Assembly (NCBI GenBank): GCA_951406725.2
Contig: OX597842.1
Span: 2,170,001-2,234,000, forward strand
DNA from: Octopus vulgaris
Lineage: Eukaryota
Direction of reading: 5' to 3'
Length of the DNA stretch: 64,000 nt
The notes beneath the pieces were generated by a model, which did no database searches, was not told where the DNA came from, and was given only the letters and a program-made list of their open reading frames with translations. Of this stretch, positions 1 to 54,500 are shown in pieces. Position 1 is the stretch's first letter. Every line of letters starts with the position of its first letter. A program made the translations under genes and the position numbers.

Positions 1-470
1 ATGCTTGCATGGATCAGATGGTGTTGACTGAGGCAGATTTTCTATTGCTGGATGCTTTTCCTGTAGCCAGACCTCACCTGTTTCCAAGTAAGATAATATT
101 TCCCACCATGGGATGATATTTCCTAAAGACGACTGCAAATCAATGACACTGCTTGTATGATGGTGATGCTCATTTACAGCTCTATAGGTCGTACCCAATA
201 TCAACCCAAGGAGACAGTAACACGCATGTGTGATGACTAGCATAGCAGCATCGGCGTGAACGGTTATGAAGATAAAGGAGATACACTGGAGACTGGAAGC
301 TATGGAACAGTGGTTCCCAAACATACCGGCTGCCACTCTCGTGACTTCTCTCGGCATTTGCTGAAGAAGGTGTTCATATGCAATCGATATGCGCATGCAC
401 GCACACAAACACACACACACACACACACAGGTAATCAACCGTCTTTGGTCTTGAAGAACTGAAAGTATTT

Positions 471-648
471 ACAGTTCTATATAACAATAATAATAATAAT
501 AATAATAAGAAGAAGAAGAAGAAGAAGGAGGATGAGGATGATGATGATGATGATGATGATGACAATATTGAAAAATACTTTAGGAATGAGAACCCAGGTC
601 TGAAATTTCCCCAAGACACCTGATGAAGGCTGAAGGGTATGTCAGCCC
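471..648 (+). mobile_element. Truncated copy of the palindromic tRNA-head/hammerhead element (HHR 5' half only)
   Basis: Begins ACAGTTCTATA (reverse complement of the element's right terminus), then (AAT)n, AGGAATGAGAACCCAGG, GACAC-CTGATGA-A-GGCTG...CAGCC; breaks before GAAA. Confidence 0.75.
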
Positions 649-924
649 TTGTTTAAAATAGTGTTCTGACCCTTCCAAAAGGTTGGGGCATGTACCACAG
701 TTGGGTTTAATACATTTTTTTACTTTGGAGCTGGTTGTGGAGGGGAATAATTTTGCATTAGTTAGCAGCTTCTTTAATGACTTGGGTTGTTTGTTGCTTT
801 TGACAATTTTAATGTCAGGTAAAATTCTTTTTAGTTTCGGGTCCTTGTGTAGTAGTGGTAGGTTTTGTATGGTTGTGCTGAATGCTTCTTTGTTTCTGAG
901 GTTGTATGGTGAAATGTAGGGTAG
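646..924 (-). pseudogene. Penelope-like element (probably Neptune-type) ORF fragment: RT thumb/linker with Cys knuckle that precedes GIY-YIG
   Basis: Stop-free 93-codon frame, absent from the ORF track for lack of a start: LPYISPYNLRNKEAFSTTIQNLPLLHKDPKLKRILPDIKIVKSNKQPKSLKKLLTNAKLFPSTTSSKVKKCIKPNCGTCPNLLEGSEHYFKQG. QPKSLKKLL plus C-x4-C-x2-C is the PLE linker pattern. Confidence 0.8.
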
Positions 925-4930: not shown

Positions 4931-5534
4931 GGTGGTGCCCTAGCAGAAATATTAGCAATCCGGGTAAAATGCTTAGTGCTACTTGGGCAGTTGGGTATCA
5001 AAGGCCGCAGAACTGCCACAATTAAACTTTTGTCTGATGTTACTGAAAAGTGCTCAATGTGGATATAGGCAATGGGGAATGACCAATGGACCTAGTGATG
5101 GATTCCATTGGTGATTTACAGGAATAGAAGGAAGAAGAGAACTGGTTCCTTCATCAGTCAGAGTGGCCTGGTGGGCTGAAACACAGACATGGGAACACAA
5201 GTTCATGTAAAGGATGACCCAGGTTCAAATCCTGCTGGAGACAGGATTTTAGAAAGCAGCAGGAGGACACCTAGGAATCGTGACCTGGGTGGGCCTCAAT
5301 TCCTGTAGAGTGTCAGGTATATGGTCTGAAATACTTGTCGGGTGGGAGTTCTTCCTCTGAAGGTCTCTCCTGCTGTGTGCTTGCCTTGCAGTGAGCTTCT
5401 GTTAATTTTAGTTATTTTTGTTTTTCTGTTTTTATGTTTCTGAGTTCAAATTCTGTTGAGGTGGACTTTGCCATTTACCCTGCCAGAGTGGATACAATAA
5501 GTACCTGGGGGTCAATGTGATCAACTAACTCCCT
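4931..5534 (+). mobile_element. Old SINE family B (Meta/beta-domain-like), split by a ~450-bp insertion
   Basis: 5' part 4931-4983 and remainder 5430-5534 (TCTGAGTTCAAATTC...GACTTTGCC...AATAAGTACC) are collinear with the copy at 11968-12194. Confidence 0.65.
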
Positions 5535-5586
5535 TATTTACATTATTTACATTTAACAGATATTTGTCCTCATCTTGTTTGTTGTT

Positions 5587-5615
5587 GACACAACGTTTCA
5601 CCTTCATCAGGTGTC
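5587..5615 (-). ncRNA. Type-I hammerhead motif, stem II deleted
   Basis: GACAC CTGATGA AGGT GAAAC GTT GTGTC: perfect stem I and core, no stem II. Confidence 0.7.
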
Positions 5616-5791
5616 TTGGGGAAATTTTGAACCTGGGTTCTCATTCCTAAGGTATTTTTCAATGTTGTTATTATTGTTGTTGTTGTTGCTGTTGTTCTGG
5701 TCACTGTTTGGAATCGAACTCGGAATCTTGGGTCTAGTCGCCTGTACTCTTAACCACTATGCCATATGCCCATGGGCATATGGTGTAGTGA

Positions 5792-5833
<42 letters not shown>

Positions 5834-5884
5834 CAACATCTAAAAGTACCTTAGGAATGAGAACCCAGGTTCAAAATTTCCCAA

Positions 5885-5930
5885 GACACCTGATAAGGGC
5901 TGGAGGGTATATCAGCCAAAACGTTGAGTT
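5885..5930 (+). ncRNA. Type-I hammerhead motif with core mutations
   Basis: GACAC CTGATAA G GGCTG-loop-CAGCC AAAAC GTT GAGTT (G8A and G12A relative to consensus). Confidence 0.65.
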
Positions 5931-6136
5931 AACAACAAACAAGATGAGGACAAATATCTGGCAAATGTAAATAATGTAAATAATTTCTCATCTCTTAAAT
6001 ATAGAACTGTATTAACTAACTCCCTCCCCAAAAATTTCAGGTATTATTACTTGTAGTGTTAGGGACTAAAATTTAGATGAAATTTTGATGGTAGATTTTA
6101 ATTAAGATCATTTTAATCATTTTGTTCCGATAGTAC

Positions 6137-7023
6137 CTTGAGAGAAAAGCTGGACCTAAGAAGCATCAGTTGTGGTGTGCAAGAGAGACGTTTGCGTTGG
6201 TATGGTCATGTGGCGAGAATGGATGAAGATAGTTGTGTGAAAAAGTGCCACACCCTAGCGGTTGAGGGAACCTGTGGAAGAGGCAGACCCAGGAAAACCT
6301 GGGACGAGGTGGTGAAGCACGACCTTCGAACTTTAGGTCTCACTGAGGAAATGACTAGAGACCGAGTCCTCTGGAAGTGTGCTGTGCGCGAGAAGACCCG
6401 GCAGGACAAGTGAGTCCATAACCCGTGGCCTTCTACTTGGGATGGAGCCAGCCTACGTATGCATACCTTCCCTTCTTGGGACACAAAACTCTACTTGTGA
6501 AGACGTGTTGAGGCAAGTGAGGATCAGAATCGAAATCGATCAATGGAAATTGCGGATGTGCTACCAGTGCCGGTGGCATGTCGAAACTCTGCTTGTGAAG
6601 ACCCATTGAGGCAAGTGAGGATCAGAATCGAAATCGATCAATAGAAATCGATCAATGGAAATTGCAGATGTGTTACCAGTGCCGGTGGCATGTAAGAGAA
6701 CTTTCCGTTTCGCGACCGTTGCCAGCACCGCCCCGTTTCGTGTCCATTGCCAGCCTCGCCTGGCCCTCGTGCCGGTGGCACATAAAAAGCACCATCCGTT
6801 CGTGGCCGTTTGCCAGCTCTGTCTGGCACCAGTGCGGGTGGCACGTAAAAAGCACCCACTACACTCACGGAGTGGTTGGCGTTAGGAAGGGCATCCAGCC
6901 GTAGAAACACTGCCAGATTTGACTGGGCCTGATGAAGCCTTCTGGCTTCACAGACCCCAGTAGAACCGTCCAACCCATGCTAGCATGGAAAACGGACGCT
7001 AAAAATGATGATGATGATGATGA
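6137..7023 (+). mobile_element. 5'-truncated RTE-clade LINE: ORF C-terminus (6138-6413), repeat-rich 3' UTR, (GAT)n tail
   Basis: RRLRWYGHVARMDEDSCVKK...GRGRPRKTWDEVVKHDL...DRVLWK is the RTE C-terminal signature. Confidence 0.9.
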
Positions 7024-16834: not shown

Positions 16835-17910
16835 GTTGTTATTTTTTGGTGCCATGTCAGTTTTGACCCAGCAGCCATATGAGCAAACATGTTCCAGATA
16901 TGACCATCCCATCATTTAATCACACATAGTGTATCTAGGACTACATTATCTAATAGTATACTACAGTAGTTAGTATTAGCGACTACAGTTGTTGTTATTT
17001 AGCCCCAGGTCAGTCCTGAATCAGGTGTGGCTATCTCATCTTTTATTCAGGTATAGTGTATCTAGGACTGCATTATCTGATGTACAGTATAGTAGTTAGT
17101 ATCAGTGGCTATAGTTGTTTAACCCCAGGTTAGTCCAGATCCAGCTAACCTATGATCAAAGATGCTCCAGGTGTGACCATCACCACCATTAAATCAGACA
17201 TAGTGTATCTAGGACTGCATTATCTAATGTACAGTATAGTAGTTAGTATCAGTGGCTATAGTTGTTTAACCCCAGGTTAGTCCAGATCCAGCTAACCTAT
17301 GATCAAAGATGCTCCAGGTGTGACCATCCTCCACCATTAAATCAGACATAGTGTATCTAGGACTGCATTATCTAATGTACAGTATAGTAGTTAGTATCAG
17401 TGGCTATAGTTGTTTAACCCCAGGTTAGTCCAGATCCAGCTAACCTATGATCAAAGATGCTCCAGGTGTGACCATCCTCCACCATTAAATCAGACATAGT
17501 GTATCTAGGACTGCATTATCTAATGTACAGTATAGTAGTTAGTATCAGTGGCTATAGTTGTTTAACCCCAGGTTAGTCCAGATCCAGCTAACCTATGATC
17601 AAAGATGCTCCAGGTGTGACCATCCTCCACCATTAAATCAGACATAGTGTATCTAGGACTGCATTATCTAATGTACAGTATAGTAGTTAGTATCAGTGGC
17701 TATAGTTGTTTAACCCCAGGTTAGTCCAGATCCAGCTAACCTATGATCAAAGATGCTCCAGGTGTGACCATCCTCCACCATTAAATCAGACATAGTGTAT
17801 CTAGGACTACATTATCTAGTTAGTATTAGTGGCTATAATTGTTCTTGTTGAAGGTTTTTAGCCCTAGGTCACTTCTGATCCAGCAGACCTATGTTCAAAA
17901 GCATTTATTC
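16835..17910 (+). repeat. 148-bp tandem array: ~5 near-identical units plus diverged flanking units
   Basis: GATGCTCCAG at 17161, 17308, 17456, 17604 and 17752. Confidence 0.95.
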
Positions 17911-18699
17911 TTTGATCATATATTTTTTTAATTTTCACAATAGTACTATGTGATTTAAAAAAGATTTGACTATTACTTTTAGCATTCCAGGGAACCATAT
18001 GAAAACTCCCAGACAAATTACTGTGAGGGCAAAAAAATGCTACGTGGCATTTGTTCTAGTTCTGTGCATTCTGAGTTCAAATCCAGCTGAGGTCAAACTT
18101 ACCACTCGTCCCACAGACAAGCTTGCTGAGATCATCATCAACATCATCTAACGTCCATCTTCCATGCATGCTTGGGTAGATCGGTTGACAGGAGCCGGTC
18201 AAGGAGAAAAACTACCCCAGTCTACTGTGTCTGCTTTGGCAAGGATTTTACGGTTGGATGCCCTTCCTAACACCTACCACTCTGCAAAGTGGACTCAGTG
18301 GCACCAGCACTGGCAGGGTAGCCAAGTAACTTGCAAGACAAGGAATTAGGAGAGGGATGGGCATTTGTGGAGGGGAACTTGTGTCAGTGGATGAAGTGAT
18401 TTTCTTTAATTCTCAAGTGCACTTGAGAATTGAAGAAAATTACTTCTTAAACTTTCTAAGACATCTCAACGCTTCTAAAGCAAATTTCGTTTGTTTGTTT
18501 TCTTTCATTGTAATTTGAATTTATATGTATGTATGTATGTATGTATGTGTGTATGTATGTATGGCTACACTTCTGTACTCTATATACAAGTACAAATCTA
18601 TTCCTTAATTTATACAAACCAAACATGCTTATACAAATATGCATAGATAGATTTCATGTACATACTTATATACATATATATATATATACTTATATACAT

Positions 18700-30842: not shown

Positions 30843-31048
30843 GACCATCCCTAATACAACAATATATATTTATATATATAGTAGCTCCAAAATATTTATA
30901 TATATATATATATAGTAGCTCCAAAATATTTATATATATATATATATAGTAGCTCCAAAATAAACAAGAGCAAACACAAAAACAACAACACTGTGTGTAC
31001 ATGGTACTTGTAAAGTATTAGCTAATGCTCAGGGAGGAACAGAAGGTG

Positions 31049-31084
31049 ATTTTACGTTTCGAGCAGACGCTCATCTTCAGAAAC
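31049..31084 (-). ncRNA. Minimal type-I hammerhead ribozyme, core intact
   Basis: GTTT CTGAAGA T GAGC-GTCT-GCTC GAAAC GTA AAAT: CUGANGA and GAAA cores, 4-bp stem II, loopless palindromic stem III, GUA site. Confidence 0.8.
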
Positions 31085-31274
31085 AGAGGAAAGTCCAGTA
31101 GAAGGGAAGACAAATATTTATTCTATTGATCTGTTTTGCCAAACTGCTATATTACAGAGACGTAAACAAACCAACATCGGTTGCCAAGCGATGGTCAGGA
31201 GCACAAACAGAGACACACAAATGGACTTATAAACACACATATACACACACACGCATGTTTATGTGTTTTACAGT

Positions 31275-36792: not shown

Positions 36793-37465
36793 ATCATCAT
36801 CATCATCATCATTTAACGTCCGCTTTCCATGCTAGCATGGGTTGGACGGTTCAATTGGGGTATGGGGAGCCAGAAGGCTGCACCAGGCCCAGTCTGATCT
36901 GGCAATGTTTCTACAGCTGGATGCCCTTCCTAATGCCAACCACTCCGTGAGTGTAGTGGGTGCTTTTTACGTCCCACCTGCACAGGTGCCAGACAAGGCT
37001 GGCAAACGGCCACGATCTGATGGTGCTTTTTATGTGCCACCGGCATGGGGGCCAGACGAGGCTGGCAACAGCCACAATCGGATGGTGCTTTTTACGTGCC
37101 ACCGGCATGGGGGCCAAACGAGGCTGGCAACTGCCACAATCGGATGGTGCTTTTTACGTGCCACCGGCATGGGGGCCAGACGAGACTGGCAACAGCCACA
37201 ATCGGATGGTGCTTTTTACGTGCCACCGGCATGGGGGCCAGACGAGGCTGGCAACGGCCACAATCGGATGGTGCTTTTTACGTGCCACCGGCATGGGGGC
37301 CAGACGAGGCTGGCAATGGCCACAATCGGATGGTGCTTTTTACGTGCCACCGGCATGGGGGCCAGACGAGGCTGGCAATGGCCACAATCGGATGGTGCTT
37401 TTTACGTGCCACCGGCATGGGGGCCAGACGAGGCTGGCAATGGCCACAATCGGATGGTGCTTTTT
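36793..37465 (-). mobile_element. RTE 3'-UTR element with a 62-bp minisatellite (~8 units, 36958-37465)
   Basis: CGGATGGTGC at 37079, 37141, 37203, 37265, 37327, 37389 and 37451. Confidence 0.9.
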
Positions 37466-38004
37466 AAAAAAATGTCTTTTGGTTTTTTTACATCATTACC
37501 ATTCTACTGCTCCTCAGTTCCATCTTCATTGAGTTCCATCACCTCTACAACATATCCACCTTTCACTACAGCCACTCCTTAACCCTATTCAGTTTCTGCA
37601 GTTGTCACCTACTCTTCCCCATTTTTCCTTCTCATCCTCCAAACAAAACTTGTTCTTCATTTTTATCTCTCTTTACTTGTTTCACTCGTTAGACTATGAC
37701 CATCCTGGAGCATTGCTTTGAGGAATTTTTAGTCGAATAAATCAACTCAGCATTTATATATATATTTTTAAGGCTGGTACTTATTCTGTCAATACTTTTT
37801 ATTGAACTGCTAAGTTATGAGGACATAATCATGCCAACACTTGTTGTTAAGTGGTGGTGGTGGTGGTGGGGGACAAACACAGACACAAAGACCTACACAC
37901 ACACACATCATCATCCTCATCAACATTTAACGTCCGCTTTCCATGCTAGCATGGGTTGGACGATTTTGACTGAGGATTTGCGAACCAGATGGTTGCACCA
38001 GGCT

Positions 38005-45292: not shown

Positions 45293-45331
45293 AAATTTTG
45301 TCCTCCTTCGTGTATATATTTATATATATAT

Positions 45332-45640
45332 AGTTCTATATTTAAGAGATGAGGAATTATGTGCATTATTTACATTATTTACAGTCGACGGATAAGACTA
45401 CGGGCATATGGCATATTGGTTAAGAGCGCGGGCTACTAACCCCAAGATTCTGAGTTCGATTCTAAGCAGTGATCTGAACAATAACAGTAATAATAATAAT
45501 AATAACATCAAAAACTACTTTAGGAATGAGAACCCAGGTTTGAAATTTCCCCAAGACACCTGAAGAAGGCTGGAGGGTATATCAGCCGAAGCGTTGTGTT
45601 AACAACAAACAGATATCAGTCGTATGTAAATAATGTACAT
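45332..45640 (+). mobile_element. tRNA-head + hammerhead element: complete right arm, left arm reduced to ~65 bp of inverted terminus
   Basis: AGTTCTATATTTAAGAGATGAG inverted terminus; head GGGCATATGGCATATTGG at 45402; B-box GAGTTCGATTC 45452-45462; HHR 45555-45600. Confidence 0.85.
45555..45600 (+). ncRNA. Type-I hammerhead motif, one core substitution
   Basis: GACAC CTGAAGA A GGCTG-GAGGGTATAT-CAGCC GAAGC GTT GTGTT (A15.1G). Confidence 0.75.
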
Positions 45641-45910
45641 ATATATGTGTGTGTGTGCCTGTGTATGTATGTATTTATGTTTATATATGTATGTGCCTAT
45701 GTATGTGTGTCGTAGCCGTTCAACAAAAGAGACTGATAGAATAAGTACTAGGCTTAAAGAAGTACTGGGGTCAATTCATTAGACTAAAATTCAAGGTAGT
45801 GCCCCAGCATGGCCACAGTCTAATTACTGAAACAAGTGGAACTGAAAAATAATAAAAGATACTTCCATAATGTTCCCACTTTTTACTTTTTATGTATATA
45901 TGTATATATG

Positions 45911-49256: not shown

Positions 49257-49375
49257 TGTTGTATTTAGGGAATGTCATGTTGCCATTTAAGCCAATAAAA
49301 ACTCACGCACTATATATTTGGTGTTAATTTGCTTCAGTTTTATTTTATTTTTTACATTAATCTTTATCTTATTTC

Positions 49376-49420
49376 GGCCAGAGTTCTTTCGTCACACTCC
49401 TATGACCTCATCAGTGGTCC
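49376..49420 (-). ncRNA. Minimal type-I hammerhead ribozyme, core intact
   Basis: GGACCA CTGATGA G GTCAT-AGGAGT-GTGAC GAAAG AA CTC TGGCC: 5-bp stem II, 2-bp stem III, CUC site. Confidence 0.8.
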
Positions 49421-53394: not shown

Positions 53395-53777
53395 TACTCT
53401 CTCTTTTACTCTTTTACTTGTTTCAGTCATTTGACTGTGGCCATGCTGGAGCACCGCCTTTGGTTGAGCAAATCGACCCCAGGACCTATTCTTTGTAAGC
53501 CTAGCACTTATTCTATCGGTCTCTTTTGCCGAACCGCTAAGTGACGGGACGTAAACACACCAGCATTGGTTGTCAAGCAATGCTAGGGAGACAAACACAG
53601 ACACACAAACACACACACACATATATATATACGACAGGCTTCTTTCAGTTTCCGTCTCCCAAATCCACTCACAAGACTTTGGTCGGCCTGAGGCTATAGC
53701 AGAAGACACTTGCCCAAGATGCCACGCAGTGGGACTGAACCCGGAACCATGTGGCTGGTAAGCAAGCTACTTACCAC

Positions 53778-53816
<39 letters not shown>

Positions 53817-54500
53817 TGGGCTTCTTTCAGTTTCCGTCTACCAAATCCACTCACAAGATTTTGGTCGGCCCGGGGCTATAGCAGAAGACACTTGCCCAAG
53901 ATGCCACGCAGTGGGACTGAACCCGGAACCATGTGGCTGGTAAGCAAGCTACTTACCACACAATATATATATATATATATATATATGGTGGGCTTCTTTC
54001 AGTTTCTGTCTACCAAATCCACTCACAAGATTTTGGTCGGCCCGGGGCTATAGCAGAAGACACTTGCCCAAGATGCCACGCAGTGGGACTGAACCTGGAA
54101 CCATGTGGCTGGTAAGCAAGCTACTTACCACACAATATATATATATATATATATATGGTGGGCTTCTTTCAGTTTCTGTCTACCAAATCCACTCACAAGA
54201 TTTTGGTCGGCCCGGGGCTATAGCAGAAGACACTTGCCCAAGATGCCACGCAGTGGGACTGAACCCGGAACCATGTGGCTGGTAAGCTAGCTACTTACCA
54301 CACAATATATATATATATATATAAATATATATATATGGTGGTCTTCTTTCAGTTTCCGTCTACCAAATCCACTCACAAGGCATTGGTCGGCCCGGGGCTA
54401 TAGCAGAAGACACTTTAGCTCAAGATGCCACGCAGTGGGACTGAACCTGGAACCATGTGGTTGGTTAGCAAGCTACTTACCACACAGCCACACCTGTGCC
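53395..54500 (-). mobile_element. SINE family A with its 5' ~145 bp tandemly amplified five times, separated by (TA)n
   Basis: CTTCTTTCAGTTTC...CTTACCACACA units near 53635, 53817, 53989, 54159 and 54339; single tail 53395-53630. Confidence 0.9.

Follow-up and report, generated by a model that had tools for sequence, protein, structure and literature searches.

A head-to-head repeat of Octopus vulgaris is a paired insertion of the pLTR of a coding Penelope-like element with a tRNA-like head

The palindromic locus at positions 5535–6013 of the window (the whole 64,000-nucleotide stretch of Octopus vulgaris DNA analyzed here) is an ordinary paired insertion of the pseudo-LTR (pLTR) of a Penelope-like element (PLE). 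Its head, (AAT)n tract, hammerhead ribozyme and tail correspond to the pLTR plus "tail" of a coding PLE present in the same genome. The new part is a tRNA-Arg-like head with A and B boxes at the 5′ edge of the pLTR of such a coding element. Our literature searches turned up no coding PLE described as having a tRNA-headed pLTR; Repbase, Dfam, SINEBase or the Zenodo library accompanying PMC13282606 may hold the family, and the word "hammerhead" is absent from the available supplement of that 2026 octopus repeat annotation. We consider it fairly probable, though well short of assured, that RNA started at this head, together with internal starts of reverse transcription, gives rise to the short head-to-head pairs.

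The locus and its coding parent

The two arms meet head to head, and a 12-bp flank duplication borders them (Table 1), both as given in a preliminary description of this DNA; the center lies at 5772–5773. That description had placed the right end at 6010 instead of about 6013. The left arm ends at reference position 149 of 186, and the deletion of its stem II shifts the ORF out of frame; most of the head is missing from the right arm. The 10-nt core of the junction palindrome is also found in ORF-linked copies, immediately upstream of the head. The three loci of the window do not all begin with an inverted tail, as had been thought: the first and third begin with an inverted long (tailed) end, the locus at 5535 with a short one. 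The copy at 470–648 breaks off after stem II against a fragment of a Neptune-type PLE ORF (646–924, minus strand; 54% identical to a young family with 781-aa frames), and a deletion probably joined the two.

Table 1. Features of the paired insertion and of two further copies of the element in the window
Feature	Position	Strand	Remark
Left target-site duplication (12 bp)	5523–5534	+	Identical 12-mer at 5523 and 6014
Left arm: pLTR copy, full head, short (tail-less) 3′ end	5535–5773	−	
5′ part of PLE ORF, ATG at 5644	5535–5644	−	Frame homologous to P0004 N-terminus
Left-arm minimal type-I hammerhead remnant, stem II deleted (17 nt)	5587–5615	−	
(AAC/AAT)n tract between head and ORF start, left arm	5666–5698	−	
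tRNA-Arg(ACG)-like head, left arm	5699–5771	−	A box 5754–5764, B box 5710–5721
Junction palindrome, head-to-head meeting of the arms	5761–5783	.	Center of paired arms
Right arm: pLTR copy, head internally deleted, long (tailed) 3′ end	5774–6013	+	
Right-arm (AAT)n	5796–5835	+	
Right-arm ORF ATG	5857	+	
Right-arm hammerhead, G8>A and G12>A in catalytic core	5885–5930	+	Predicted cut 5925/5926
Segment at long (tailed) end of right arm	5985–6013	+	
Right target-site duplication	6014–6025	+	Matches 12-mer at 5523–5534
Second copy: inverted tail tip (470–482), repeat tract, ORF start, hammerhead through stem II	470–648	+	
Third copy: long tail in inverted orientation, complete head, hammerhead of the N7=A lineage, short end	45326–45641	+	

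An unselected 400-kb sample contains a decayed ORF encoding RT and GIY-YIG endonuclease that starts right after the tail and is followed by the head, (AAT)n and hammerhead. The head lies directly after the ORF end at 21 of 30 loci selected on the RT, and at 23 of 30 once two were read on longer sequence; of the other seven, six lose the ORF before its end and one reaches the end without a detected head. At 23 of 30 loci selected on the ORF N-terminus the tail runs directly into it, three of these 23 being partial tandems with an ORF end upstream. Along the element, the ORF end is followed by the head, (AAT)n, the ORF start containing the hammerhead, the tail and the remaining ORF. The segments once described as the body, ribozyme and tail of a separate non-autonomous element are the N-terminus of the PLE ORF, whose frame opens at an ATG in the "body" and continues through ribozyme and tail. 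This frame matches the N-terminus of an intact relative of 847 aa (P0004; 36% over 184 aa, E 1e-36), and the homology covers the hammerhead-encoded residues too. The absence of a LINE tail, noted before, holds, as the 3′ part is PLE ORF and pLTR with two fixed ends.

Among 121 proteins fetched, the N-terminal motif occurs in P0004 and in one other, P0001. The latter is an annotated octopus protein that combines the ORF start of the element, including the ribozyme-encoded residues, with unrelated sequence, and is either a gene-model artefact or an exapted first exon. A peptide of the element also matches an Octopus-named protein at 86%.

RT and C-terminal GIY-YIG lie in one ORF, with 1,529 relatives at E ≤ 1e-20. 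The RVT_1 match to the ORF (E 2.7e-6) lies below the cut-off, and Pfam gives no GIY-YIG match in the ORF of the element, where the motif was identified in the translated sequence; 3 of 120 relatives have a PF01541 entry. A zinc-finger-like linker between RT and endonuclease (EN) marks Neptune and Nematis (PMC8557442). Such a CxxC linker is absent from the loci of the element examined and present in the Neptune-type family of the same genome, so that the element is classed by these features as an EN+ PLE of the Penelope/Poseidon type. With these PLEs (PAc of Anolis, PMC11167929; Adineta Pen2a, PMC3846280; PMC8557442) it shares the single ORF with RT and C-terminal GIY-YIG, a pLTR that overlaps the ORF start and holds a hammerhead within the first codons, and a palindrome at the pLTR 5′ end. 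It differs in that the octopus pLTR begins with a tRNA-Arg-like segment with A and B boxes and (AAT)n.

No intact full-length ORF was seen, the longest open frame among 150 matches listed being 569 aa; all copies seen are decayed, and the family is real and abundant. The best 150 peptide matches of the core contained no coding parent (longest frame 236 aa). A search pattern avoiding the usual upstream sequence gave 97 matches, and the 30 loci examined were solely deletions and shortened copies, with no parent among them. One ORF-linked insertion is present with its flanks at three places on one contig (96–99% over 2.5 kb), either by segmental duplication or by capture inside a larger mobile unit.

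The Neptune-type family, retrieved through the Pfam GIY-YIG model (6,136 first-look candidates), was considered as a partner and ruled out, as 42 loci showed no shared pLTR. In this young family many of the 781-aa RT-EN frames are intact, an ORF of ~480 aa lies upstream and overlaps them, and the targets are (TA)n; scans of its loci L091–L098 found no hammerhead.

An exact 19-mer of the core has 12,685 matches in the 2.8-Gb genome against none for its reversed control, which excludes chance, and a peptide search with the element gave 40,184 first-look candidates. A divergence of ~3–4% per site suggests an estimate of roughly 20–40 thousand arms. They constitute a large natural record of PLE insertion intermediates, which could show if a pair derives its arms from a single RNA or from two, and if hammerheads of EN+ PLEs cut in vivo.

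Paired insertion and its templates

The 3′ ends of the copies are bimodal, at ~140–161 or at 179–186, the two classes lying ~35 nt apart. Head-to-head pairs make up 34 of 60 loci; 31 of these 34 combine one long (tailed) and one short end, and a target-site duplication (TSD) of at least 7 nt flanks 21 of the 34, compared with 15 of 456 mismatched controls. In an unbiased set of 23 consecutive loci on the largest chromosome (chromosome 1), 17 loci are pairs, with long/short ends in 15 of the 17 and a TSD of at least 7 nt in seven. The head is present at 19 of the 23 loci and ORF-side sequence at none. The inner junction varies between loci, with hot spots at microhomologies, and the exact central junction also recurs.

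The published layout of PLE insertions includes an inverted 5′-truncated copy and a 30–40-bp tail at one end only (PMC8557442), and the Penelope/Poseidon elements cited above share with the octopus copies the one-sided tail of 30–40 nt, the inverted 5′-truncated partner and a TSD of ~8–14 bp. Palindromes at pLTR 5′ ends and head-to-head junctions are likewise described for Adineta PLEs, with no tRNA mentioned in the available text (PMC3846280). Taken together with this layout, the variable junctions and asymmetric ends identify the palindrome as an insertion product. The earlier suggestion that PLE machinery moves the element is borne out.

The palindrome itself had been proposed as the unit of mobility, a stand-alone ribozyme-SINE transcribed divergently, self-cleaved and moved as a whole. 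The 17 pairs among 23 unbiased loci and the recurrence of the exact central junction are in keeping with it. However, the junctions are variable, the ends asymmetric (one tailed) and the arms of a pair can differ in lineage markers; most arms span the cut site, and the sequence is identical with the pLTR of the coding element. This model is already contradicted, and we regard it as scarcely credible.

Tandem arrays of complete units are absent from the 23 unbiased loci, and partial duplications occur in a few loci (e.g., L008 and L168). Because tandem units are lacking, a retrozyme model with a circular template was rejected. As non-coding hammerhead repeats related to pLTRs, the octopus copies resemble animal non-LTR retrozymes (bioRxiv 10.64898/2026.07.22.740005), but the latter are defined by head-to-tail tandem units, whereas the octopus copies are head-to-head or single and their unit is the unaltered pLTR.

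Two lineage markers, N7 (T/A) and position 129 (A/G), are linked (P = 2e-11). Discordance between the arms of a pair was seen 8 times among 52 pairs for N7 and 10 times among 59 for position 129, more than mutation would give. Private changes common to both arms, which a fold-back would predict, show no excess (10, against a shuffled mean of 5.3 and maximum of 12). Judged by the discordant markers and this lack of excess, at least some pairs arose from two templates. The arms agree above independence (roughly 20 discordant pairs expected at either marker, 19.5 against the 8 observed at N7; the expectation is inflated by the choice of sets), so many pairs may derive from one template or one local RNA pool.

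The tRNA-like head as a candidate promoter

The tRNA-like nature of the head, proposed earlier, is supported by its A and B boxes and by alignment to a tRNA-Arg(ACG) gene of the genome, which ARAGORN called in one of six pattern hits (50 of 75 columns for the copy L032). Scores against this single tRNA gene are 54–66, compared with shuffled maxima of 45–51; the comparison is partly circular and the control overstates it, because the search pattern fixed ~20 matching letters, and the independent part of the evidence is the 5′ half and the ARAGORN tRNA call. Rfam did not recognize the head as a tRNA, either at this locus or in good copies, even at E ≤ 10; its list for the whole window was taken up by microsatellite noise. 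ARAGORN found no tRNA in the window, the head itself included. The tRNA and hammerhead identifications consequently rest on motif, alignment and comparison with relatives.

ORF-linked copies retain both boxes at their spacing. The 79 related PLE loci obtained from metagenomes (29–48% protein identity, many incomplete) showed neither a tRNA nor an A/B-box pair; on them ARAGORN gave 0 tRNAs by default and noise in a relaxed run. An independent SINE family with the same head was looked for and not seen, as 26 of 30 head-selected loci have the core on the same arm; the heads of other tRNA-like repeats in ~1.5 Mb differ from that of the element. At four loci (L024, L025, L026 and L029), other (AAT)n-ending repeats lie inside the (AAT)n tract of the element, splitting head from core.

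Pol III starts are expected 8–15 nt upstream of an A box. In 108 loci, 62 heads reach +1; 56 stop there, while the other six extend into the ORF by 154 to more than 1,090 nt. Positions −7 to 0, where the stops are concentrated, overlap the junction palindrome. The head is likely a promoter that sets the 5′ end of the RNA, and its sequence suggests use of Pol III.

The main alternative to a promoter is an RT stall or fold-back at the junction palindrome. On this account the head would be a passenger, the remnant of a tRNA or SINE in the PLE 3′ UTR, an ordinary pLTR promoter would drive transcription through Pol II, and the stop at +1 would reflect RT behavior. The stops do overlap the palindrome, a tRNA-like fold could also stop RT, (AAT)n after the head resembles a retroposed tail, and the palindromes and head-to-head junctions of the Adineta PLEs occur in elements for which the available text mentions no tRNA (PMC3846280). 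According to Kojima (PMC10886601), transcription of autonomous partners has to be by Pol II. Against this, copies passing +1 extend for hundreds of bases, and a roughly tenfold step at +1 is thus much sharper than a 4-bp hairpin would lead one to expect; ORF-linked copies preserve the two boxes and the distance between them, and the stops lie 8–15 nt upstream of the A box. We judge a passenger head improbable and prefer the promoter.

PLE promoters sit in the pLTR (PMC6765202). In three raw RNA runs of one unstranded study, reads over head and core are abundant and equal on both strands, and 72–73% run into unlike flanks; this signal is passive transcription. No pile of read ends was found at the head or the cut in these unstranded reads dominated by read-through. 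In the majority sequence, the sense strand of the RT-EN and N-terminal parts has no T4 runs, compared with eight in the Neptune ORF, a deficit without statistical significance (P = 0.12, RT-EN part).

In the mechanism that we favor, RNA starting at the head would meet the RT/GIY-YIG protein of the element itself, which, by analogy with PAc, would nick both DNA strands. Reverse transcription would start inside the RNA at two sites ~35 nt apart, PAc having two internal RT start sites (PMC11167929); a start at the first pLTR of the RNA would yield a cDNA of only ~300 nt that spans tail to head. With one such cDNA made on each strand, the junction palindrome or another microhomology would let the two join at their 3′ ends, which would produce the head-to-head arrangement. 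Short copies in SINE-like excess would be a by-product of an autonomous element, and a tRNA-like promoter in the end repeat would explain why short copies far outnumber long ones.

Alternatively, short tailed copies derived from the pLTR may by now be Pol III SINEs that propagate themselves, borrowing the PLE enzyme in trans. None of the 23 consecutive loci has ORF-side sequence, and the short copy retains both boxes and both predicted RT start sites. Short arms are also less diverged than ORF-linked pLTRs (3.2% vs 5.5%, P = 0.006), but this age comparison is biased, the short set having been chosen by the exact 19-mer and thus biased young. The variant G8>A occurs in 11 of 81 arms and in none of 11 readable ORF-linked pLTRs, a count that is inflated because the query carried the variant. 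However, the N7 marker and a 3-nt deletion described below are common to short and ORF-linked copies, and the two commonest lineage markers are, in the ORF frame, one conservative (Asp/Glu) and one synonymous, as expected of coding masters. PAc, in addition, needs RNA extending past its RT start sites (PMC11167929). We therefore hold self-propagation to be unlikely and continue to see the short copies as probable offspring of the coding PLE.

The statement in the preliminary description that ordinary SINEs carry no ribozymes overlooks the schistosome Sm-alpha and Sj-alpha elements (PMC2770079, PMC6765202). These are short, high-copy elements with tRNA-related sequence, a Pol III-type promoter and a hammerhead, as in octopus, and the combination of tRNA and hammerhead is thus already known; the available text of both papers describes no coding parent with the same promoter. 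They further differ in being SINE-like, often in head-to-tail repeats, and in having canonical hammerheads.

OR1 and OR2 of octopus are reportedly of Arg tRNA origin. Together with OK they share tRNA-derived heads with the element (Ohshima and Okada 1994), but OR1 and OR2 are cited as CORE-SINEs with a ~60-bp central domain, while the head described here is followed directly by (AAT)n and an ORF start, which sets them apart by their descriptions.

TRIMp3 elements (Cassandra, Helenus and Ajax; PMC10886601) likewise have a promoter of Pol III type derived from a small RNA in their terminal repeat, proposed to have come by SINE insertion. They are non-autonomous LTR elements whose LTRs are not common to an autonomous partner, whereas the octopus repeat belongs to a coding PLE. 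A Pol III promoter in the terminal repeat of a coding element itself was judged unlikely for LTR elements in that paper. If the mechanism holds, a small-RNA promoter in the terminal repeat and internal RT initiation would together allow an autonomous Penelope element to flood the genome with SINE-like short copies, no separate parasite being needed, and repeat libraries listing such copies as SINEs would misclassify them.

The hammerhead and candidate traces of cleavage

Neither arm of the locus has an intact ribozyme; both are broken, with complementary lesions. The reconstruction of an intact type-I hammerhead from damaged copies proved correct for the genome at large: the majority of 82 arms have an intact minimal type-I hammerhead with CUGANGA, a bulged A, a stem II of 5–6 bp, GAAAC-GUU with a loopless palindromic stem III, and a stem I of 5 bp. 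Of 35 unbiased arms, 19 have all 11 core positions intact. About a third of the 79 related loci (26 rows) show this layout too, with other stem sequences. Of the checks proposed earlier, the consensus core came out intact, while Rfam matched no hammerhead at E ≤ 10, either at this locus or in good copies. Neither the monomer nor the dimer adopted the hammerhead structure in MFE folding.

Minimal type-I hammerheads of metazoan PLEs (PMC4209133) share the long stem II, the 5′ bulged base, the short stem I and the loopless palindromic stem III, with no structural difference from the octopus motif. In S. mansoni, dual minimal hammerheads lie 100–700 bp apart on opposite strands (PMC4209133).

Self-cleavage had been put forward as a step of mobilization, a proposal that the copies do not support: only 19 of the 35 unbiased arms keep the core intact, and most arms span the predicted cut, which points to uncut RNA as the usual template, as for PAc, whose ribozyme mutants insert normally (PMC11167929). 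By this analogy the ribozyme is likely dispensable for insertion. In-vivo cutting by an EN+ PLE hammerhead is called unclear in PMC8557442, and for PAc cleavage was not seen in RNA reads (PMC11167929).

Two observations hint at cleavage in vivo, each with other explanations. The first concerns junction breaks, of which 85 were found in 219 arms not selected on the junction, 78 of them at positions 9–111. Eleven of the 78 fall within the first five bases after the cut (P = 0.0014; a post hoc choice, and some are internal deletions). Breaks inside the ribozyme are in deficit (14 of 78), and a second peak at 107–111 has no ribozyme explanation. By rough hand counts, break frequency changes no more than about twofold across the cut over the whole genome, and numerous junctions lie 1–4 nt 5′ of it. 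A 6-nt palindrome lies immediately 3′ of the cut.

The second is a 3-nt in-frame deletion across the cut, seen by hand count in about two thirds of the 100 matches listed out of 1,687. This amounts to about 9% of arms. The deletion is present in 3 of 36 unbiased arms, in 4 of 17 ORF-linked pLTRs and in 384 of 3,840 RNA reads in run X22, and it occurs on both N7 backgrounds. Only one arm carries it in 10 of 11 pairs (a partly selected set), and both arms in five adjacent pairs among the matches listed. An RT jump across the cut via a 2-nt microhomology would produce exactly this deletion; it may also have arisen by slippage or been inherited from a master.

A bolder reading, which we consider possible but doubtful, would have a coding retrotransposon run on a captured tRNA-gene (Pol III) promoter across a T4-free unit of ~2.7 kb, breeding SINE-like copies through internal RT initiation at the first pLTR while its hammerhead cuts in vivo and scars the genome. 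The scars would be the junctions at the first bases after the cut and the 3-nt deletion left by the RT jump.

Two further hammerhead-like motifs lie on the minus strand of the window. One, at ~31040–31090 (core at 31080), is minimal, with a short stem II and palindromic stem III, and is likely the pLTR of a further PLE family; the other, at ~49350–49420, has a CUGAUGA core at 49414, stem II and GAAA and belongs to another family. An open frame at 6141–6300, 130 bp from the right TSD of the locus, resembles what we take to be the C-terminal end of an RTE-type LINE ORF. The window also contains a 148-nt tandem array with 100% identical units (17183–17922), a 62-nt tandem array (36943–37528) and, at 53579–54485, five copies of another abundant SINE-like repeat, spaced at ~175 nt.
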